DNA of 37,801 bases, taken from the NCBI GenBank assembly GCA_051652765.1, contig JBOFUV010000054.1, positions 1 through 37,801 on the forward strand. Reading direction: 5' to 3'. Below, in pieces: positions 442-37,516 of this stretch. The translations under genes and the position numbers were made by a program. Under the pieces are notes generated by a model. It saw only the letters and a list, made by a program, of their open reading frames with translations. It searched no databases and was not told where the DNA came from. The DNA is from Microcoleaceae cyanobacterium (GTDB taxonomy: Bacteria; Cyanobacteriota; Cyanobacteriia; Cyanobacteriales; Microcoleaceae). Every line of letters starts with the position of its first letter. The first letter of the stretch is position 1.

Positions 442-1224
442 TCATTCAACTTGACAACACCGAATAATAGGCGCGTCAGCAATTTGATCCAATCCAACAG
501 ATTTCAGTAAGCTGGATTTCTCCTGCATCAATTCCACACTTTGAGGTTTTTCAAGCAGCAATTGGTTGATCAAAGTCAATGCATCATACCAAATGCCATG
601 GGTGATATAAGCATTATAATTTTTCTCGGTTAGATCATTTGAGAGTTGAGTTCTCAGTTCAGAAGTTGGTTCAACAGGTTGAATCCAGCCATCAACTCTA
701 GGGTTTTTGGATGGATGTTCTGGATCGCAGACTAGCTCGAAAAACCAATGATACTCTTGGTTAGGTTCTAATGAAACTAAAGTTGAAGATAAGGAAACGC
801 TGATAATTCCTGGAGTTTCAGAAAGCTGAATCGTTATAGGTTGTTTAAGAACAGAACGTTGATTTTGATCCAATAATATGAGTTCTGCCTGATAAACTTG
901 GGTAGATTTATAGGGCACATAAAACCACAACGTTGGGGATGCACTCACGGTTAGCCCAAAGTTGTTCGGGGGAATCAATGCTGTTAGGGGCAAGGTCGTT
1001 GCCGGACAATTTCCCCGGCTCCCGCCACCTTGACGGTTTCCTGGCCAAGTTCTGCCATATCCATCAAAAGAACTAGTAAGGAGTAGAGCATTTTGAGGAA
1101 CTTCAGTCAATGTAGACAATGGGTAAATACTTAGGCCAATTTGCCAATCTAAGGCAAGAAAAATTGCCATTATCTTAAAATTTAACCTTGAATTTAACCT
1201 TGAATTTAACTTCATCCAATTCAT
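442..1224 (-). CDS. DUF928 domain protein, predicted exported
   Basis: Motifs PGNRQGGGSRGNC, GLTVSASPTLWFYVP, YHWFFELVC, VDGWI, GIWYDAL and LLKSVGL. The ATG at 1224 overlaps the upstream TGA (ATGA coupling), so it is preferred over the ORF-track start at 1293. Basic then hydrophobic N-terminus. Confidence 0.85.
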   Translation of the reverse strand: MNWMKLNSRLNSRLNFKIMAIFLALDWQIGLSIYPLSTLTEVPQNALLLTSSFDGYGRTWPGNRQGGGSRGNCPATTLPLTALIPPNNFGLTVSASPTLWFYVPYKSTQVYQAELILLDQNQRSVLKQPITIQLSETPGIISVSLSSTLVSLEPNQEYHWFFELVCDPEHPSKNPRVDGWIQPVEPTSELRTQLSNDLTEKNYNAYITHGIWYDALTLINQLLLEKPQSVELMQEKSSLLKSVGLDQIADAPIIRCCQVE

Positions 1225-3530
1225 CTTTTTACTCCTGCTAGAATAAACGAAATTCCCATAGGAATAATTGGTATCCATCCGCCGTTGATCCAAAGAATCA
1301 CAAAACTTGTTCCACCTAAAATAGTCAGAATAATACCCCCTGTGAAAAAATAAAAAATCAACGGGAGCTTTCGATAAAAATAAAACCTAGAGATTGCTTC
1401 TCCTAAAACAGCGCTGGTGAAAATTAACAGTACTTCTCCCCATAGGGGCAAGACCCATATTAAGGGGCGATCATCTTGAACAGCACTTAATATTTGACTC
1501 ACCATTTGGGCCTGAACAAATACCCCTGAAATATGTTGAATCGGGGCATAGGCTGCACTGTAAGGAGTCAGCAAACCATCTTCAATACTACGGGCATTTG
1601 TCCCAATTAAGATAATCCGATCTTTCACCCAAGATGAGTCAAATTGATTATTTAAAATTTCCCCTAGGGTAACAGTTTGAGCAGGGGCTTGAGCAGAACG
1701 ATAGTTTAGTAACACCTGATATCCTGCCGCATCTAGTTTTTGGTAACTTCCGGTCTGCGGTTCAATTTTTTTGAAATTAACTGTTCCAATCTGAAAGGAA
1801 TTTGGCAAAGTTTGGTTAAATTTAACGCCTTCAGAAGTTAAGTAATGTTGGACTATTTGAAAGCTAAAAGATTTGTCTGTGTCGCATCCATCAACCGGAT
1901 TCATCCCAAAGAATTGGCGACGGACAATTCCATCTGAATCAATCGGTACATCACTAAATCCAACCTGTTCTAATGGCATTTCACGAGGAGGAGCGATAGT
2001 AGGATTATTTTCACCCCCCCCCATTTCACAAACTGCAATTAAATTCTGATATAGACTCTTAGAGTGAGCTGAAGGTTCTAAAGAGTTCTGCGCTCCTGCT
2101 TGCAATAAAAAAGGCCGATAAATATCTAAACCAATCACTCGCGGTTGATGTTGATTGAGCTTTTCTAGCAACTGTTTCAAAGTTTGCTCTGATAATGAAC
2201 CCTGGCCATCCCTAGGGCTTTGGGCTTCGATATCTGCTTCAGTGATTGTAACAATTAACAAGCGAGGATCAAGGGATTCTTGAGGGCGTAATCTAACCAA
2301 TTGATCGAAGGTTTTTAACTCCAAATATTCTAATAATCCAAACCATCTGATGCCCGTGACTAAACTGGTAATTACTAAGCTTGCAATCAATAAAGACTGC
2401 CATTGAGGCCATTTTGATATGGTTTTTGGCCGCATGGGCTGCCGCAATTGTTGCCAGGTTGGAGGAGGCTCTGTCAGGTCTTGAAAGGTTGGATTTTGAA
2501 AAATTACTGGTAGCCAGCTAGCGCAGGGAAATTTATCTTCTAATCCTTGTAACCGTTCTCGCGCTTCTCGAACTGATAGTTCAAAGGATTTTCCACCAGA
2601 GAATGCAGTGAGGAAATATTTGAGAAATTCTTGAGCAACTCGATCTGGTATCAGCTCTCGCATCACAATCATTTGAGGAATCTGCAAATCACTCAATTGC
2701 CATGCTAAGCCCAACCCATCACAGGAGTTGAAAATTGCTAGTTTTAACCCTTGATGAACCGACTGTTTTAAACCATATTTCAACTCTTGAATGGTTAAAT
2801 TATCCCTAGGATTCAGGTAAATTTTTCCGGTATCCTGTTCTGTTTCACTGTGCCCAGCAAAGAACAGAATATCCCAGGGTTGTTCCCACAGGCGATCGCT
2901 CACAACTTGACGGTTAGGCTCTACTAAAAACGTCACCTCAGCATCCGGCAAACTTTCCAATAATTGCCGATCCCGACTCACCTGAATACCGGCACTGTGT
3001 CCTAGAATTGCCAGAATTCTCACCTTTTTTTTAGTTGTTGAAGGTGCGACTTTAATCGGTTTAAACCCTGGCGCACAGAATGTGATTTCTGCCTGTCGTG
3101 ACTCTACCCAATCCCACAGATGCCAAGGAAGTTTTTGCAATTGCTGATCGTCAGTTTGAATCAGCACTCTTAAAGTATCTTCTCGATTAATTTCATCTCG
3201 CAATCGTCGCTCAATTGGACGAAATTCAGCCACATCTAACCAGCGCAGAAACTGGTCAACTAATTGTTTGGCAGAGTACTGACAATTGTCAAGCCGAATG
3301 CCAATATTACCATCATAAATAATCGCTTCTGGGTTGATTCGATAGGGTGCCTCAATCCTTCGATACTGTGTGTTCCAATGATTTTGTAAACAAGTTACAA
3401 GCTCTGAGTTGGGAGGTAACCTGCCAACCATTTCGAAGCAGCGATTACCTCCCGACCAGATTTCTAATGTAACCTGTAATCCTTGAATTAAATCACCATT
3501 AAATCTGAGGAGAACTTGTTTGTTCATCAC
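1221..3530 (-). CDS. CHAT (caspase-HetF-like) protease fused to a TM helix, CHASE2 extracytoplasmic sensor domain and C-terminal TM helices
   Basis: CHAT motifs LQKLPWH, ILFFAGHS (His), LAIFNSCDG (Cys) and QEFLKYFL...AR. TM segment SLLIASLVITSLVTGI. CHASE2 motifs LELKTFDQLVRLRP, DPRLLIVTITEADI, PRVIGLDIYR, DSDGIVRR and KDRIILIG. Confidence 0.9.
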   Translation of the reverse strand: MMNKQVLLRFNGDLIQGLQVTLEIWSGGNRCFEMVGRLPPNSELVTCLQNHWNTQYRRIEAPYRINPEAIIYDGNIGIRLDNCQYSAKQLVDQFLRWLDVAEFRPIERRLRDEINREDTLRVLIQTDDQQLQKLPWHLWDWVESRQAEITFCAPGFKPIKVAPSTTKKKVRILAILGHSAGIQVSRDRQLLESLPDAEVTFLVEPNRQVVSDRLWEQPWDILFFAGHSETEQDTGKIYLNPRDNLTIQELKYGLKQSVHQGLKLAIFNSCDGLGLAWQLSDLQIPQMIVMRELIPDRVAQEFLKYFLTAFSGGKSFELSVREARERLQGLEDKFPCASWLPVIFQNPTFQDLTEPPPTWQQLRQPMRPKTISKWPQWQSLLIASLVITSLVTGIRWFGLLEYLELKTFDQLVRLRPQESLDPRLLIVTITEADIEAQSPRDGQGSLSEQTLKQLLEKLNQHQPRVIGLDIYRPFLLQAGAQNSLEPSAHSKSLYQNLIAVCEMGGGENNPTIAPPREMPLEQVGFSDVPIDSDGIVRRQFFGMNPVDGCDTDKSFSFQIVQHYLTSEGVKFNQTLPNSFQIGTVNFKKIEPQTGSYQKLDAAGYQVLLNYRSAQAPAQTVTLGEILNNQFDSSWVKDRIILIGTNARSIEDGLLTPYSAAYAPIQHISGVFVQAQMVSQILSAVQDDRPLIWVLPLWGEVLLIFTSAVLGEAISRFYFYRKLPLIFYFFTGGIILTILGGTSFVILWINGGWIPIIPMGISFILAGVKR

Positions 3531-3545
3531 CCATTCCTCTTAAGG

Positions 3546-4490
3546 TTAAAGAAAAAAGGTTTCCGTAATTCTGGATGTGCCATGGATAATCTGAACTCCA
3601 AAGCCTTCTCCAGTTTCACCACTAAATTTTAGCTGCAGACTTTCAGTACTTCGAGTTTCTGCTTGCATGACCGTTGCTTGTTCCTCATCCAAAATAGATA
3701 GTTTTAAATCTGGAGGCAAGTAAGTCTGATTTTCGATCGGATATAATTCAACCCAAATTTCCATTTCTAAAGCTGTTCTAGGAGTAATCCGAACCAGCAA
3801 TCCAACAGATTCTTGTGGATTATTTAGACTCAACACTTTAACCCGTTCAACCATAGTTTTTGTGCTCTTCAACGCTTGAGAATTGCTATTCCCATGATTA
3901 ACTGTTCCACTCCGCCAAGCCATCTGAGGCGGAGCCAGCAAACTATTTACCGTTTCCCAACCCGTTTCAAACACATTTTGTAACCATTGATCCAATTTTA
4001 CCGAAGCTTCTAACTGACTAGAATACTTGAGAAAATCATCTAGAGATTTCACTTGAATCAAGGGAATTGCTTCAGCTTCAGCCTTTCTTAAAAAACCTAG
4101 GATTCGAGCTTCTGTCAGGGCTGAATTAAGCTGAACAGCAAAGTAACCTCTGCGATCGCTCCATGTTTCAGGCGGAATATGAACTGTGGATTCATCCGGC
4201 AATACTGGACGACACTCAAATCTCCCAATCTGATTGACTTCTAAATCGGCAACATCCATGAATCGTTGGATCATCGGATCAAAACTATTGCTTGATTCCC
4301 AATTTGTTCGGAATCCCATACAGTTTAAATAAAAATCAACGGCATATACACTTAATGTATTGAGATACACTTGTTTAGCACGGTTGGCATCAAATTGCTG
4401 TTGACGAAATTGGCTCGCAATTTGATGGGCTTCTGAATATAAAGGAACGGTAAAAGTTAAAGTTTCCATCATAACCTCCAGAGTCTTCAT
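3546..4490 (-). CDS. DUF1822 family protein (candidate anti-sigma factor / protease substrate)
   Basis: Motifs AKQVYLNTLSVYAV, GRFECRPV, SDRRGYFAVQL, ARILGF, LDQWLQNVFETGW, LPPDLKLSILDE and GETGEGFGVQI are typical of DUF1822. Confidence 0.85.
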   Translation of the reverse strand: MKTLEVMMETLTFTVPLYSEAHQIASQFRQQQFDANRAKQVYLNTLSVYAVDFYLNCMGFRTNWESSNSFDPMIQRFMDVADLEVNQIGRFECRPVLPDESTVHIPPETWSDRRGYFAVQLNSALTEARILGFLRKAEAEAIPLIQVKSLDDFLKYSSQLEASVKLDQWLQNVFETGWETVNSLLAPPQMAWRSGTVNHGNSNSQALKSTKTMVERVKVLSLNNPQESVGLLVRITPRTALEMEIWVELYPIENQTYLPPDLKLSILDEEQATVMQAETRSTESLQLKFSGETGEGFGVQIIHGTSRITETFFL

Positions 4491-4577
4491 GAGTTTAATA
4501 GCAACCGGATTTGATCTGAAATTGTGGTGTAGGCATCTTGTCTACTATCTTACAGAACCATGCCTAAAAAACCAATT

Positions 4578-5252
4578 CTAGGATTGTAAATAGTCTCGAA
4601 AATAAGGGGTGAACTCTTTCAATCTCTTCTTGAAAAATTCGTAAAGGGATGAAATAGGGACATTTAACTCCGCTGAAATCTCTTGCCATTTTCGATCTCG
4701 CCAGATCTTTTCTAAAGCCAGGAACTGAAATGTTGCCTTGGATTGACCTTTAATATGATCTTGAGTGAACATCTGATTTGGATTTTCCTCAATCAACTGT
4801 TTTAATTCCTCAGATTCAGAAACTTGATCTTGAGCCGGAAAAAAGTGATCCAAATCTTCTAAATTTGGTAAAGAGATTTCAGGTTGAGTCTTTTGATCTT
4901 TGGGTAAATGAGTCATTCCTTTCTTGAGATACCGATCAAAATTATCCATGAATCGCTTTTCTAATAAAAAGTTGCACCACGCCATCACATCCTGTTCCGG
5001 TTTATAACGGTCAATTTTCTGACAAATCTCCATCAACATGCTGCTCAGGGCTTCACTGTAAAGATCATCATAAACTCCCTGAGAAAAGGGAAAAGACCCT
5101 TTTTTAGGGTGACCCAAATGACCCGACTTTAAAATTCCTTCGACTAATTGGTTGAGAGTTCGCCGACGTTCATAACTTTGGGCTGGGTATACCTGAGCAC
5201 TTTTGGCTAGCTGATTGAGTTGGCGATCGCCATCATAACTCCCCCTAATCAT
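4578..5252 (-). CDS. Sigma-70 family (ECF-like) RNA polymerase sigma factor
   Basis: Region-2-like LYSEALSSMLMEICQKIDRY..VMAWCNFLL and region-4 HTH RKWQEISAELNVPISSLYEFFKKRL. GGGAGG RBS upstream. Adjacent to DUF1822. Confidence 0.75.
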   Translation of the reverse strand: MIRGSYDGDRQLNQLAKSAQVYPAQSYERRRTLNQLVEGILKSGHLGHPKKGSFPFSQGVYDDLYSEALSSMLMEICQKIDRYKPEQDVMAWCNFLLEKRFMDNFDRYLKKGMTHLPKDQKTQPEISLPNLEDLDHFFPAQDQVSESEELKQLIEENPNQMFTQDHIKGQSKATFQFLALEKIWRDRKWQEISAELNVPISSLYEFFKKRLKEFTPYFRDYLQS

Positions 5253-5276
5253 GGACAGTTCCTCCCGAATTCAAGG

Positions 5277-5319
5277 GTTCTATTTTAGTTTCAGCTTTTA
5301 GAACAAATTTTTTCGGAAA
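5277..5319 (-). promoter_or_regulatory. Candidate sigma-dependent promoter for the sigma/DUF1822/CHAT operon
   Basis: Minus strand reads TTTCCGAAAAAA-tttgttctaaaag-CTGAAAC-taaaat-AGAAC, with the same motif and spacing as 5376-5418 (+). Confidence 0.6.
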
Positions 5320-5375
5320 ATTCAGTTTTTTTTACAAAACTTCAGGTCAATCTCCAATCTGAAAAACTTTTCAAA

Positions 5376-5418
5376 TTTCCGAAAAAAACTAAGCCTACTC
5401 CAGAAACACATACAGAAC
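5376..5418 (+). promoter_or_regulatory. Candidate sigma-dependent promoter for the RTX gene
   Basis: TTTCCGAAAAAA-actaagcctactc-CAGAAAC-acatac-AGAAC, ending about 30 nt before the ATG at 5450. Confidence 0.6.
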
Positions 5419-5449
5419 AACTCACTTGAAACTACAAGGAAGAACCAAA

Positions 5450-6415
5450 ATGGCGATTATTATTGGAACACCTGCAAGCGACCAGATTAATTTGACTGCA
5501 ACTCCTGAATCCCTACGTACAACCAATAACGCTGATACAGTAACGGCGAATGGTGGGGCTGATACAGTTCGAGGAGGAGGAGGAAATGATTTGATCGAGG
5601 GCAACTCAGGGAATGATAGTTTGCTCGGTGAGGCTGGACGAGACACAATCTATGGCGGTGTTGGTGCTGAAACAATTTATGGAGGATCAGACAACGATTA
5701 CCTCGATGGTGGCACTCCCCTAACCTTTGAACTGGGTGATGATCGAATTTACGGAGAGGGAGGGAATGACTTCCTGCTAGGTGGTCTTGGCAAGGATTTC
5801 CTTGATGGAGGAGACAATAACGACACCCTCAAAGGTCATGACAATGATGACAGGCTATTTGGTGGTGCTGGCAACGACAAAATGTACGGCGAGAATGGCA
5901 AGGACAACCTTCAAGGTGATGGGGGTAACGACAGCATGTATGGCGGCGCTGACAATGATACGTTCAATGCGTGGTGGGGGTATGATCTGCTCAGGGGTGA
6001 GGCAGGAAATGATGCCCTGCTAGGATGGGGCGGTCGAGATACTCTGTATGGAGATGAAGGCAACGATACGCTATATGTCAATGATGTACCCATCGGTTTC
6101 GAAGAGGATCTTGATACCTTAACGGGTGGTATAGGTGCGGATACGTTCCGTATCTCTCGTTTAACAGACAAGGTTGATACAATCACGGACTTTAAATTTG
6201 GAGAAAACGACATAGTTGCGATCAGCAAATTAGGGTTTGGGGCAACTTCACTGGATCAATTTGAATCAGTCTATAATTTAACGACCAAGATCGACACTCT
6301 GTTCTTTGATGCCTCTCCAACTGACGGAGTTGCTCCTGCACCAGTCGTCCAATTCACAAACATGCCAAACGATGATGCTTTCATCATTTCTGCTAGCCAT
6401 ATTAATCTCTTTTAG
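5450..6415 (+). CDS. RTX / hemolysin-type calcium-binding repeat protein
   Basis: Many GGxGxDxLx nonapeptides. C-terminal DTLTGGIGADTF...VDTITDF typical of type I-secreted RTX proteins. No Sec signal. AAGGA RBS before ATG 5450 (MAIIIGT...). Confidence 0.9.
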   Translation: MAIIIGTPASDQINLTATPESLRTTNNADTVTANGGADTVRGGGGNDLIEGNSGNDSLLGEAGRDTIYGGVGAETIYGGSDNDYLDGGTPLTFELGDDRIYGEGGNDFLLGGLGKDFLDGGDNNDTLKGHDNDDRLFGGAGNDKMYGENGKDNLQGDGGNDSMYGGADNDTFNAWWGYDLLRGEAGNDALLGWGGRDTLYGDEGNDTLYVNDVPIGFEEDLDTLTGGIGADTFRISRLTDKVDTITDFKFGENDIVAISKLGFGATSLDQFESVYNLTTKIDTLFFDASPTDGVAPAPVVQFTNMPNDDAFIISASHINLF

Positions 6416-10864: not shown

Positions 10865-12037
10865 GTGATTTCTCTAACTAACCCCATGATGTCGGCTGAA
10901 TCCTTGACCCATCAGTGGCGTTCCCAAGTTGAACAGGACTATTTGGCACGCAGCCCGGAAGTGCGAGAGAGTATTGTTCGCTGGCTGTTGGGCGAGAATT
11001 CAACTCAATGGGAAACTCTAACCCCCACTCAGCAAAAAGCAGTTGAACAGGGAATTCAGTTTCGGTATCGGATTTTGCAACAGCGCTATTTGGATGCTTC
11101 ACCGGAACAGGCGTATCGAAATTTGATGCGACGGTTAGGAGGATTAGTCATCCTCCGTCAAAAAATCCAGAGTTGGGTGGCGACGAGTCGAGATCGGCAG
11201 CGCAAAGTCATTGATGTCTTGCAGGAAGTGATTCAGGAAATGCTGAATAGCGATCGCTATCTGCAACAGCAGTTAGCCTGGATTTCAGAGTGTACCTCAG
11301 ATCCCAAATTGCGGAATGCTTTGCTGTTTACCAGTCTAGAAGAATATTGCCTGCGACCGATTCGGAACCAACCCTTGATTGCCTGTCGATTTGTCAACTA
11401 TCTGCGTCAATCTCAGAAAGGGGGATTGACCCAAGTTCCTTCTGGGGAGTGGGTTCGGCAGGTTTCTGATGAAACAATGACTCATGACATGGATGAGCCC
11501 ATGAGCCTGTTGGATAACCAGGCGCTCGCCCAATACGAAGACACTCAATTTTTGGAGCATCAACATGCCCAAGGTTTGACGGTTCAGGCTGAATTTACCA
11601 ATTACCTGCAAGACAAGGTTGATCCCTTTGCAGCTCAGTGGTTACAGCTTTACCTGCGAGGAGAATCCCAGGAGGCGATCGCTCAAACCCTTAACCTACC
11701 CATTAAACAGGTCTATCGACTTCGAGAAAAAGTCAGCTATCATGCCGTGCGAAATTTTGCTCTAAAACAGCCTTCTGAGTGGGTTACAACGTGGTTAGGC
11801 ACTTCCCTGACGGAAAATCGACTTGGACTGACTGAAACTCAGTGGCAGGAATTTTGGCAAAACCTAGATCCCGCTCAGCAAAAGATTCTGCAGGGGTTAA
11901 AGCAGGGTCAATCCGTTGAGAATATTGCCAAACAGCTCAATTTAAAGATCACTCAAGTCTTGAATGAGTGGACAAAGCTTTATTTCATGGCTCAGACAAT
12001 GAGAAACTCAGCTAGCCCTAGCAGCGATCTTGAATAG
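10865..12037 (+). CDS. HetZ-related protein (sigma-like multi-HTH regulator)
   Basis: SIVRWLLG, ILQQRYL, QEVIQEML, LLFTSLEEY, and HTH segments LYLRGESQEAIAQTLNLPIKQVYRLREKVSYHA and GQSVENIAKQLNL. Matches my recollection of the cyanobacterial HetZ-related protein 2 family. Confidence 0.75.
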   Translation: MISLTNPMMSAESLTHQWRSQVEQDYLARSPEVRESIVRWLLGENSTQWETLTPTQQKAVEQGIQFRYRILQQRYLDASPEQAYRNLMRRLGGLVILRQKIQSWVATSRDRQRKVIDVLQEVIQEMLNSDRYLQQQLAWISECTSDPKLRNALLFTSLEEYCLRPIRNQPLIACRFVNYLRQSQKGGLTQVPSGEWVRQVSDETMTHDMDEPMSLLDNQALAQYEDTQFLEHQHAQGLTVQAEFTNYLQDKVDPFAAQWLQLYLRGESQEAIAQTLNLPIKQVYRLREKVSYHAVRNFALKQPSEWVTTWLGTSLTENRLGLTETQWQEFWQNLDPAQQKILQGLKQGQSVENIAKQLNLKITQVLNEWTKLYFMAQTMRNSASPSSDLE

Positions 12038-35545: not shown

Positions 35546-37516
35546 TTAGTTTTTCTTTTGATTGTTCAAACGCGCTTGCCACTGGGCGATCGTCTTCTGA
35601 ACTGTTTTATAAGCTGGGGTATCTTTAGGAATGAGGGCTGCCGATTCAACTGCCTGACCCAACCGTCCTTTTTTGGCTTGGGCCTGGGCAATCTCTAAAA
35701 TTGCAGCCCCCCATTGGTCAATGGACTGTTTTGCCTCTGCATAACCGGGCTGACTCGCATTGATTTGGCGGGCGGTGTCAATTGCACTTCGGTAGGAACC
35801 AGCATCTCCAGTTTTAATTTTGGCCTGGGCAGCTTTGAGTTGGGCTCGATTATCTTTAATTTGCTGTAGCTTTTGATCCCATTTTTGAATTTGGAGCTGA
35901 GCCTGTTCGTAGATCGCCTGATTTTCCGGTGGAACCAGCTTTGCAGCCGCGATCGCATCGGGAAGATTATTGGCCAAAGCCCGCCCTTGAGCAATATCAA
36001 AAATCGTTTGACTCCAGCGTTCAATATCTTGCTGAGCAACGGGATACAGGGGGTCAGTCTTTTGAACCTTGCTGGCGGCGGCAATGGCCTCGCTCCAATT
36101 TGAGGCCGAGCTACTTTGCAAGGCAGTTCTGGCTTGCTTTAGAGTTGCTTCATTCCTAGAGATTGCTGCTTCCGAAAGATTTCCCGAATCTGCAGGTTTC
36201 ACCGGGCTAATCGCCTGGGTCTCAGGTGCCTTAGCAGCAGGCGCTGGAGATGTTGGAGCAGAAGCTGGACTAGGAGGAGTAGGAGACACCTTGACAGATT
36301 GACCCTGAGACGTAGGCTGAGACGTTGGGGACGGTCGGCCTAACACAATGCTCCTGTTTGCATAAAACACTCCAAACAGCAGGAGTAGCGCCGTTAGTCC
36401 ACTCCACAAAATCAGTTGCTGTAAGAAAGACTTATCTGACATCAATCCCTCAGTCAGTGGCTCTGGGTTTATAGAATGAGTAACGTTCTCTGTTCGATCT
36501 GGTGTTGCTGGAGAGCTGGGCGGCTTCCCAAAACCTCCATCAAAATCTCTCTGGGTTGCTGGCTGGGCGGCTGCGGCTGCCGCTACTGGAGGCAAGGATG
36601 ACTCTAGAGCATTAGCATTGCTCTCTTGCTCTACCGAGGAGTAACGGGTCATGGATTCAACATTCAATGCTGAGCCATTTTGGCCTTGACGATCCCCAGC
36701 CTTCGGGCCAACTCCACCTAAAGTGTTACTTGAACTTCCTAAGTTTGTAGTAAAACTAGAAACCGCTTCAGGCTCAGGCAAAATTAGACGACTCACCTTT
36801 TCAGAAGGGTTCATGACCAAAACAGGATCTTGCTGGGGTCTCAAATGCTGCTCCGTGAGTTCAGGCAGGCGATGACTCAAAAAGCGATACAGATCCTCAA
36901 TACTTTTTCCCTGATTACTCTTCAGCCCTTCTAACAAGGTCGCCGTGAAAAAACCTTGACGCAAGGCAGAGGTCTCACGAGAAAGCTGATCCGGGCGGCA
37001 GGACAGAATCGTCGGAATCTCCATTTGATTTGCCAACTCCATAGTGGTAATCCCCACACGCTCGCCAACTCGTCCCCCTTGACTTCGATTGATGTCCAGC
37101 AACATTAAAACTGACTCCGCTGGCGATCGCCTCAGACGCTCAAACATCAACTCCATCGGAATAGCTGTTTCCTCAGGATTAGCAGAACTCCCATCAATTG
37201 GCATCAGATAATCCTGTTCTCCACAATTCATGCCATAGCCACTAAAGAAACACCACAAGGTATCCCCTGGCTGCAGGCATTCATCACAGAGTCTGTCCAG
37301 GCAACTCAAGATGTTGTTTCGACTCGGATAAGTTGAGAGTCCTTCAATCTCCGGAGAAGAATCCGTGAGTAAAAGACACTTATCTGTTGAAAACCCTGCC
37401 TCAAGAAGAACTTGGTGCAATCCTTCTGCATCTCTCTGAGAATAACTGAGCGGCTGTAAAAACTGATATCCGTTAATTCCAATAGCAATACAAGAGTGTC
37501 GTCCCATCGGTGACAT
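35546..37516 (-). CDS. Peptidase C14 (caspase-like) protein, catalytically substituted pseudo-orthocaspase, membrane-anchored
   Basis: IAIGINGY..L..L.Y...DA, FFSGYG, DYLMP.DG, LLDINRS and GFFT..LLEGL; linker; TM (LILWSGLTALLLLFGVFY); C-terminal helical repeats. Confidence 0.88.
   Translation of the reverse strand: MSPMGRHSCIAIGINGYQFLQPLSYSQRDAEGLHQVLLEAGFSTDKCLLLTDSSPEIEGLSTYPSRNNILSCLDRLCDECLQPGDTLWCFFSGYGMNCGEQDYLMPIDGSSANPEETAIPMELMFERLRRSPAESVLMLLDINRSQGGRVGERVGITTMELANQMEIPTILSCRPDQLSRETSALRQGFFTATLLEGLKSNQGKSIEDLYRFLSHRLPELTEQHLRPQQDPVLVMNPSEKVSRLILPEPEAVSSFTTNLGSSSNTLGGVGPKAGDRQGQNGSALNVESMTRYSSVEQESNANALESSLPPVAAAAAAQPATQRDFDGGFGKPPSSPATPDRTENVTHSINPEPLTEGLMSDKSFLQQLILWSGLTALLLLFGVFYANRSIVLGRPSPTSQPTSQGQSVKVSPTPPSPASAPTSPAPAAKAPETQAISPVKPADSGNLSEAAISRNEATLKQARTALQSSSASNWSEAIAAASKVQKTDPLYPVAQQDIERWSQTIFDIAQGRALANNLPDAIAAAKLVPPENQAIYEQAQLQIQKWDQKLQQIKDNRAQLKAAQAKIKTGDAGSYRSAIDTARQINASQPGYAEAKQSIDQWGAAILEIAQAQAKKGRLGQAVESAALIPKDTPAYKTVQKTIAQWQARLNNQKKN

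Follow-up and report, generated by a model that had tools for sequence, protein, structure and literature searches.

A cyanobacterial locus predicted to couple a CHAT-CHASE2 receptor protease to an ECF-type sigma factor through DUF1822

Introduction

In Anabaena, the CHAT protease HetF cuts PatU3 between R117 and S118 (PMC9457339), and PatU3 inhibits HetZ, a sigma factor of the extracytoplasmic function (ECF) type (PMC13342950). The HetZ promoter consensus is TCCGGA N16-17 TGNA, in which TCCGGA is the -35 element (PMC13342950). No paper was found that shows the entire chain from HetF to HetZ in one experiment. The present analysis concerns a comparable arrangement, an operon encoding a sigma-like protein, a DUF1822 protein, a CHAT-CHASE2 receptor protease and a DUF928 protein, which lies divergent from an RTX gene near one end of a 37,801-nucleotide stretch of DNA (the window). 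Contig C54, which makes up the window, belongs to a 5.04-Mb genome that is cyanobacterial from its gene content and relatives. It is on balance probable that the operon encodes a complete chain in which a receptor-caspase switch frees the sigma factor through cleavage of its anti-sigma.

Loci of this kind have been catalogued computationally by Kaur, Iyer, Burroughs and Aravind (2021) as a neighbourhood of EACC2-caspase, ECF sigma and DUF1822 genes (PMC8195603). Operons in their supplement comprise a DUF1822-family gene, an EACC2+CASPASE+CHASE2+TM+TM gene (TM, transmembrane) and then a 'TM+beta_rich+TPRs' gene (TPR, tetratricopeptide repeat; PMC8195603), which is taken here, from its position, to be DUF928. 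Elsewhere, the adjacency of CHASE2 and DUF928 has been remarked in one Nostoc (PMC5587647), and DUF1822 is merely tabulated (PMC9679502). An earlier reading of the window, made from the sequence only, knew of no experimental characterisation of the module. This stands insofar as openly accessible full texts, a coverage that leaves out most subscription journals, yielded no experiment on the module or its promoter; the module had, however, already been catalogued by Kaur et al. Cell death and defence are the usual contexts in which the many caspase-like proteases of filamentous cyanobacteria are considered, and the locus offers a concrete alternative.

Organization of the locus

The four tightly packed, co-oriented genes and the divergent RTX gene described by the sequence-only reading are confirmed by the open reading frame (ORF) coordinates and Pfam matches. 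On the minus strand, the genes follow one another in the order sigma-like, DUF1822, CHAT+CHASE2 and DUF928, with gaps of 87 bp and 15 bp and then the ATGA overlap at 1221-1224 by which the last two had been proposed to be coupled. The listed TTG start of DUF928 at 1293 falls within the CHAT gene, and the likely start is the ATG at 1224.

4578..5252, minus strand: predicted divergent ECF-type sigma factor, 224 aa; no Pfam match, fold matches to sigma factors
3546..4490, minus strand: DUF1822 protein, predicted anti-sigma and protease substrate; PF08852, E 4e-67, and predicted complex
3909..3914, minus strand: codons of Arg193-Ser194, the predicted scissile bond in DUF1822; conserved Arg and HetF/PatU3 analogy
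1221..3530, minus strand: receptor protease CHAT-TM-CHASE2-TMs, 769 aa; PF12770, E 2e-11, and PF05226, E 2e-60
442..1224, minus strand: DUF928 protein, 260 aa, probably exported, likely CHASE2 partner; PF06051, E 5e-59

The sigma factor and its predicted complex with DUF1822

The structural model of the first gene product predicts a divergent ECF-type sigma factor with region 2 at about residues 5-110 and region 4 at about residues 158-222. Both folds are present without regions 1.1 and 3, which is the group 4 architecture. The top fold matches are ECF region 2 domains, led by SigC (Z 9.7, root-mean-square deviation (rmsd) 2.1, 86 aligned) and including SigW (Z 8.6) and SigK (Z 8.5), with CnrH and SigE within the range Z 8.0-9.7; the C-terminal part matches helix-turn-helix and region 4 domains at Z about 6-7. 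Helical folds may reach such Z values by chance, but sigma factors nevertheless top both fold searches. The top ten Foldseek matches are all sigma factors, none of which reaches E 0.001.

Co-folding of the sigma factor with DUF1822, a check proposed by the sequence-only reading, gave a complex that scored 0.88 in three runs, whereas the best of three controls scored 0.00. The runs share at least 96% of contacts, and the predicted local distance difference test (pLDDT) of the partner is at least 82. The mark used for complex scores is reached by 116/157 solved complexes and 2/215 mismatched pairs, counts that apply only roughly since the alignments were user-supplied. In the predicted interface, residues 11-161 of DUF1822 face residues 24-78, 126-147 and 179-219 of the sigma factor; the C-terminal domain of DUF1822 is not named there. 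The interface thus covers both DNA-binding regions (2 and 4), as expected of an anti-sigma factor, which supports binding. From these models, DUF1822 is very probably the anti-sigma of the adjoining sigma factor, a role that had been guessed at from the sequence and that now has computational support.

The DUF1822 model (pLDDT 88) comprises two domains joined by a low-confidence linker, residues 188-209. Residues 11-161 form an N-domain with a PD-(D/E)xK-like fold, and residues 209-314 a C-terminal immunoglobulin (Ig)-like β-sandwich that matches Ig-like domains at Z about 7. The N-domain matches the fold of the homing endonuclease I-Ssp6803I with Z 9.6 and rmsd 2.9 over 114 aligned residues, and four further PD-(D/E)xK members match at Z 7.0-8.8, Holliday-junction resolvases (8.8) being among the fold matches. 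Sequence searches of solved structures gave no match for DUF1822 or the protease, and for the PD-(D/E)xK identity of the N-domain there was no sequence-level support, the ESM Atlas returning no usable match. A TPR identity of DUF1822 was rejected, as the model contains 15 strands and 6 helices and no tandem hairpins.

The fold invites a different account of the locus, one of defence or cell death, in which cleavage would free the N-domain as a PD-(D/E)xK nuclease, the sigma factor would act in the manner of an antitoxin and transcription would be secondary. Kaur et al. indeed place such systems among counter-invader conflict systems (PMC8195603), and the matches to I-Ssp6803I and the resolvases (Z 9.6 and 8.8) point the same way. 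Both D82 (conserved in 38/41 homologues) and E92 (41/41) lie outside the predicted sigma interface. These two residues are candidate acids of the PD-(D/E)xK catalytic set (Asp, Glu/Asp, Lys), assigned from the general motif and not by superposition. The motif Lys is, however, replaced by Arg in 36/41, and the expected helical-acid position, aligned by the same motif, is Val in 36/41. Moreover, the long-type DUF1822 paralogues of the source genome lack the E-x-R motif, PADLOC gave no match for any of the five proteins, and the predicted regulon described below consists of secreted surface or hydrolytic proteins rather than defence genes. This account is considered very improbable.

The receptor protease and the candidate cleavage site

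The CHAT dyad, which the sequence-only reading had called intact, is formed by H227 (AGHS) and C270 (NSCDG), and its motifs recur in 35/36 homologous protease ORFs, of which the remaining one is truncated where its contig ends. The protease combines a caspase domain (PF12770) with a variable C-terminal sensor and TM helices (PF05226). In the roughly 90 residues ahead of the Pfam CHAT match, a putative EACC2-like region, no EACC2 model was matched from Pfam or NCBIfam. A hydropathy scan places hydrophobic helices at residues 380-398, 690-708 and 728-746, with a weaker one at 746-764. Since no hydrophobic helix lies ahead of the CHAT domain, CHAT is most likely cytoplasmic and CHASE2 most likely periplasmic, in keeping with the topology first suggested. 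The placement of DUF928 outside the membrane is less clear: an N-terminal hydrophobic stretch is present in 19/21 homologues, whereas that of the window copy is weak and contains an Asp. Gene linkage is the ground for suggesting that DUF928 and CHASE2 may sense an envelope cue. An ESM Atlas search with DUF928 returned DUF928 clusters only.

A candidate scissile bond lies in the interdomain linker of DUF1822, where pLDDT is below 50 throughout residues 188-209. Among 41 aligned homologues, the column of Arg193 holds Arg in 39, Lys in 1 and Ala in 1, the preceding residue being Phe in 25 and the following one Ser in 22, while the columns beside Arg193 are about 50% conserved or less. By analogy to HetF and PatU3, CHAT may cut DUF1822 after Arg193; the conserved linker Arg and this precedent lend computational support to the earlier proposal that DUF1822 is the substrate of the protease. 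In two proteins (loci L148 and L139; two cases only) the N-domain is replaced while the C-half with its Arg-Ser motif is kept and an EACC2-CHAT gene lies nearby, which suggests that the C-half could serve as the handle of the protease.

The two fusions are found at L148:7334-8668 and L139:7802-9196. The first carries TRADD-N (PF20694) and pentapeptide parts; the second has an unassigned N-terminal domain that resembles PemK/MazF by eye, and its gene is preceded by one with sigma region 2. PF20694 is absent from the window DUF1822 at E 0.01, so the window locus falls outside the TRADD-N subtype. A search for short proteins with the DUF1822 C-half alone gave nine proteins, many on very short contigs.

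Alternatively, the caspase might act as an autopeptidase, cutting itself on sensing so that the freed part acts on the DUF1822-sigma complex, with DUF1822 as adaptor or anti-sigma and not as substrate. Activation of this type was proposed by Kaur et al. (PMC8195603), self-cleavage has also been proposed for the CHAT-bearing anti-sigma DdvA (PMC11506125), and the predicted cut in DUF1822 does not touch the sigma interface. Yet the stretch from CHAT to the first TM helix lacks a conserved hydrophobic-Arg-small motif of the sort that DUF1822 has, with a single match in 25 CHASE2-type homologues, located at the TM edge, and HetF, the closest characterised CHAT protease, cuts a separate anti-sigma. 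Self-cleavage is rather improbable, though the least so of the alternatives weighed here, and cleavage of DUF1822 is preferred.

Candidate promoter boxes and the predicted regulon

The 197 bp between the start codons of the sigma and RTX genes hold two copies of TCCGAAAAAA-N13-C(A/T)GAAA, one per gene; the window contains 2 matches to this pattern, against 0.01 expected by chance. With TCCGAA and CAGAAA set 17 bp apart, the pattern is shaped like a sigma promoter and similar to the HetZ consensus.

5289..5317, minus strand: predicted sigma-dependent operon promoter, TCCGAA-17 bp-CTGAAA; 23.5 bits, 65 bp before the sigma ATG
5378..5406, plus strand: predicted sigma-dependent RTX promoter, TCCGAA-17 bp-CAGAAA; 29.5 bits, 72 bp before ATG 5450
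5450..6415, plus strand: RTX calcium-binding repeat protein, 321 aa from ATG 5450; PF00353, predicted sigma target
5331..5348, plus strand: HLR1-like (RpaB) repeat; perfect half-site at 5331-5338, second half degenerate

A matrix was built from 20 sites of other genomes, leaving the source genome outside the training set, and the spacing is fixed at 17 bp in 20/20 of these sites. The RTX-facing box reaches the matrix maximum with its 29.5 bits, and the operon-facing CTGAAA has one mismatch to the consensus CAGAAA. In the 5 Mb of the source genome there are six sites above 22 bits (0, 0 and 0 in three shuffles), namely the window pair and four others on contig C144 that precede two RTX paralogues, an RTX-subtilase and one small ORF. 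Across 144 family genomes, the exact pattern occurs 2-9 times in 10/10 genomes with a sigma orthologue of 63-66% identity, a count that tells less for the proposed regulon than it seems, being partly circular because nine of the ten supplied training loci, and the ten are kin from three genera. It occurs once each in 2/134 genomes without the orthologue and is missing from the two same-genus genomes among them; a reversed control pattern gave one match each in 8 genomes. What does carry information is the source genome, together with the copies found on other contigs and the lack of the pattern elsewhere.

The sigma-facing box is present in all ten orthologous loci, the first box being invariant in 9/9 aligned loci, and the outward box in seven of ten. 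It is missing where the divergent gene is absent (L099) or encodes a metabolic enzyme (L100 and L101), presumably ProA-like. Before more distant sigma genes, at 38 loci, a de novo search recovered a related and equally spaced motif, whose information content is 15.8 (10.8-11.4 in shuffles) and whose outward copy occurs in 12/26 divergent as against 1/13 co-oriented loci. No sigma-70 housekeeping promoter was found by a scan of the sigma-RTX intergenic region, such promoters being overall fewer than in shuffles, and Rfam gave no match over 4400-5600. At L024 (G020:C376:47144-47616), four exact tandem boxes stand before one RTX gene, about 75-80 bp apart in pairs.

The co-occurrence of box and orthologue suggests that the sigma factor may recognise the box, and the set of boxes is likely, with good confidence, to be its regulon. 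The box might instead be read by another regulator, or be part of a duplicated leader, which would leave the RTX gene outside the control of this sigma factor. The link between sigma factor and motif is indeed a correlation among kin, the RTX paralogues have leaders in common, and genome G097, without the orthologue, has one exact box before an RTX gene. This is nevertheless distinctly unlikely, given that the box is non-palindromic, has a rigid 17-bp spacer and is aimed at a gene in both directions; it stands before genes of unrelated kinds (sigma, subtilase, serralysin-like, DUF4347 and FG-GAP proteins), 132/134 genomes that lack the orthologue have no copy of it, and it varies along with the sigma subfamily.

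Recognition of the box by the sigma factor would direct it to both its own operon and the divergent gene, and the shared bipartite box is computational support for the earlier proposal that it transcribes the two. The divergent gene (5426/5450-6415) matches PF00353 only, in 7 stretches, with no catalytic or pore-forming domain found; against NF033943 it scores 107 bits (cut-off 1000), with only the repeats matched. As no pore-forming or enzymatic domain was matched ahead of the repeats, it does not belong to the RTX pore-forming toxins. The two paralogues on C144, 63-64% identical, carry the same box. Across the family, RTX repeats occur in the first divergent gene of 3/26 loci, and in about five further loci that gene encodes other extracellular domains; the RTX gene was therefore rejected as a fixed member of the module. 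Control of it by the sigma factor is supported by the shared box, but the gene appears to be one interchangeable target rather than a fixed fifth component.

Outward-facing sites were tallied manually, for 31 positions whose downstream gene was read; three further sites were not fetched. They face 15 RTX-repeat genes, 7 genes of other extracellular type (DUF4347, FG-GAP, PPC and two unannotated), 4 small ORFs, 2 unrelated enzymes and, in 3 cases, nothing close, at distances of 49 to 631 bp. The C144 region (G000:C144:983-11000, L140) contains the two RTX paralogues, the RTX-subtilase, three similar proteins and four promoter boxes. The three similar proteins end in a PEP-CTERM-like tail (by eye; no Pfam match in the one scanned). 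Small ORFs with a WRRNGFWVID-like tail recur behind the box on C144, in L098 and in L121.

An HLR1-like repeat with at most 2 mismatches was present in 14/26 family promoters (L026-L056) and in 0/520 shuffles. It lies just upstream of the operon promoter, and its first half-site is nearly invariant across orthologous loci. Its centre would fall near -57, and the upstream cluster of RpaB sites, in the work from which the HLR1 consensus is taken, spans -66 to -45 (PMC6525291). The repeat suggests a light or redox input on the operon.

Conservation of the module among relatives

With the sigma factor as query in 41 genomes, 46 distinct places were found outside the source genome; locus counts refer to the best 40 of the 46, the weakest 6 being left out. 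The genomes compared are kin, and the counts are not independent trials. In this gene-neighbourhood survey, another of the checks first proposed, DUF1822 directly follows the sigma homologue in 40/40 loci and an EACC2-CHAT gene comes next in 33/40, 24 of the proteases being CHASE2-type and 9 bearing other sensors (pentapeptide, STAND-WD40, periplasmic-binding or TPR parts). DUF928 follows 20/24 CHASE2-type proteases and 0/9 of those with other sensors, and hence accompanies CHASE2 rather than the protease as such. The linkage of sigma, DUF1822, CHAT and DUF928 genes exceeds chance.

The source genome has 28 CHAT matches and 7 DUF1822 genes, all 7 preceded by a sigma-like gene; 3 are of the short type and 4 of the long type, which resembles the short type weakly (probability 40%). 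DUF1822 was matched in 98/151 genomes sampled across the phylum, and scans of genome and metagenome collections yielded 2 and 1 loci. A paralogous sigma-DUF1822 pair at G000:C115:37799-45472 is followed by three EACC2-CHAT-like ORFs of 903, 209 and 748 aa, one apparently a fragment. In L028, L029, L034, L037, L041, L046, L047 and L048, a TPR-CHAT gene converges on the operon past DUF928, often adjoined by further large ORFs; the window locus has no such gene.

In family f24, with genomes of 1.6-2.3 Mb, DUF1822 was matched in 49/57. These genomes were rejected as carriers of the module on the strength of the five examined (L134-L138), in which the match spans just the N-domain, at the start of an acidic protein of about 1000 aa, and the short flanks hold neither a sigma nor a CHAT gene. 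The helical stretch behind the domain resembles an anti-sigma domain by eye and has no Pfam match.

Proposed mechanism

The chain joins elements read from the DNA, namely the gene order, the dyad, the linker Arg and the boxes with their distribution, to the predicted folds and the predicted sigma-DUF1822 complex. At rest, the N-domain of DUF1822 would wrap sigma regions 2 and 4, as in the predicted structure, and block transcription. From the architecture, the gene linkage and the topology deduced above, we infer that CHASE2, probably aided by exported DUF928, senses a cue in the periplasm and thereby activates the CHAT domain on the cytoplasmic side. CHAT would then cut DUF1822 after Arg193 in the linker, removing the C-terminal Ig-like domain while the sigma-binding domain stays whole. 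For the sigma factor to be released, the N-fragment would probably have to be degraded further, a step also proposed for Csx30 and PatU3. Once free, and if it recognises the box, the sigma factor would read the TCCGAA-17 bp-CAGAAA promoters and so amplify its own operon and induce a small set of secreted proteins, with the window RTX protein, its two paralogues and the RTX-subtilase on C144 as predicted targets.

Beside the partial circularity of the box count, several points weigh against this chain. The support is computational throughout, binding, cleavage and transcription all being predictions. The sigma model is middling (pLDDT 70, predicted template modelling score (pTM) 0.47), and the protein scores 14 bits on TIGR02937, with a cut-off of 42.9; this cut-off does not decide the matter, because the HetZ of the source genome, a proven sigma, likewise falls below it at 24 bits. 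The predicted cut lies outside the sigma interface, so that cleavage by itself would not obviously free the sigma factor. In 7/40 sigma-DUF1822 loci there is no CHAT gene downstream, and 4/5 of such loci present in the alignment keep Arg193; for these, a protease acting in trans must be assumed. Among the four C144 sites, the two that precede RTX paralogues may have been duplicated together with the genes. The box precedes just 3/44 RTX-like ORFs of the source genome (at least 4 repeats, by our own count), and the regulon would thus be a subset of them. Some exact sites precede a NACHT nucleoside triphosphatase, a glycosyltransferase, small ORFs or nothing close.

If correct, the scheme would assign roles to DUF1822 and DUF928 and provide a CHASE2 sensor with an output, and it could supply orthogonal protease-gated sigma switches. 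It is specific down to the residue and the base, proposing an anti-sigma, a single scissile bond, a consensus for the promoter and a regulon of six sites. A wider reading, put forward tentatively and as a whole somewhat short of even chances, is that the expanded receptor-caspase family of cyanobacteria may be a general means of transmembrane signalling, alongside two-component systems and classical intramembrane proteolysis. Each receptor would cut a portable tag (Trp-rich helix, Arg-Ser linker and Ig-like domain) carried by an anti-sigma with the fold of a retired restriction nuclease, each sigma would read its own promoter variant and control secreted surface proteins, and HetF-PatU-HetZ would be a distant developmental offshoot.

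Neighbouring genes

Three genes of the window outside the module were recorded. A 656-aa protein at 35546-37516 has an N-terminal Peptidase_C14 caspase domain and is a second caspase-like gene product of the contig. An LmeA-like ORF at 2-445 also overlaps the DUF928 stop by its first ATG (ATGA); its true start is probably further down, and other genes occupy that place in orthologous loci. HetZ-related protein 2 at 10865-12037 (NF037965, above cut-off), 4.5 kb from the module, is probably a second unusual sigma factor, and no PatU-like or DUF1822 gene follows it.

Comparison with known systems

The module resembles DdvA-DdvS of Myxococcus xanthus in transmembrane signalling to an ECF sigma through a receptor that contains CHAT (PMC11506125). 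There, a periplasmic CHAT domain is fused to the anti-sigma and RseP takes the following step (PMC11506125), whereas here CHAT is likely cytoplasmic and the anti-sigma a separate soluble protein. In CalpL-CalpT-CalpS, too, a protease cuts a soluble putative anti-sigma and frees a fragment-sigma subcomplex, but that protease is Lon-like, is activated by cyclic oligoadenylate and has no membrane receptor (10.1101/2023.06.23.546230).

In Csx29-Csx30-CASP-sigma of type III-E CRISPR, the CHAT protease cleaves the anti-sigma beyond the N-terminal domain that binds the sigma, further degradation has been proposed to be needed for release, and CASP-sigma autoregulates its own locus (PMC10028731). In contrast to the receptor protease, Csx29 is a cytoplasmic TPR-CHAT protein triggered by target RNA through Cas7-11 (PMC10028731). 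A scan of 27 window proteins gave no match to a Cas or TPR family, and PADLOC matched none of the five proteins of the locus, which is therefore not a type III-E CASP system.

HetF-PatU3-HetZ of Anabaena PCC 7120 likewise joins a membrane CHAT protease, a cytoplasmic sigma inhibitor cut after Arg, an ECF-type sigma and an autoregulated operon. Its -35 element TCCGGA and 16-17 bp spacing compare with TCCGAA and 17 bp in the window. HetF differs in having periplasmic TPRs in place of CHASE2, and its output is heterocyst differentiation and division. In the source genome, hetZ-patU is encoded separately, on contig C3. By profile comparison (E 0.12, probability 0.5%), the window sigma was rejected as a HetZ homologue or orthologue, the true HetZ being that on C3. 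The protease was rejected as a HetF orthologue (29 bits on NF045509, cut-off 1200); its profile matches the HetF-like protein of the source genome with 98.8% probability, the CHAT domain alone being common. A likeness between the C-terminal domains of DUF1822 and PatU is suggestive by eye and weak in profile comparison (E 0.004, probability 8%; E 0.05 with a wider profile), and reciprocal rank tests among 10,547 ORFs found nothing; homology of the two is not claimed.

In common with the neighbourhood of Kaur et al., the locus has a caspase domain behind a putative N-terminal module, a variable sensor such as CHASE2 with TM helices, and adjacent ECF sigma and DUF1822 genes, an adjacency present in 40/40 related loci. 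Their account calls DUF1822 a TPR protein, whereas the model here is β-rich without helical repeats; it favours autopeptidase activation, and an anti-sigma, a cleavage site, a promoter and a regulon are not named in the parts consulted. The window locus is a real member of this computationally catalogued family, to which it adds a predicted interface for the anti-sigma, a putative scissile bond and, as candidate regulon, a small group of secreted proteins. The module would work like HetF-PatU3-HetZ and Csx29-Csx30-CASP-sigma and belongs to neither.

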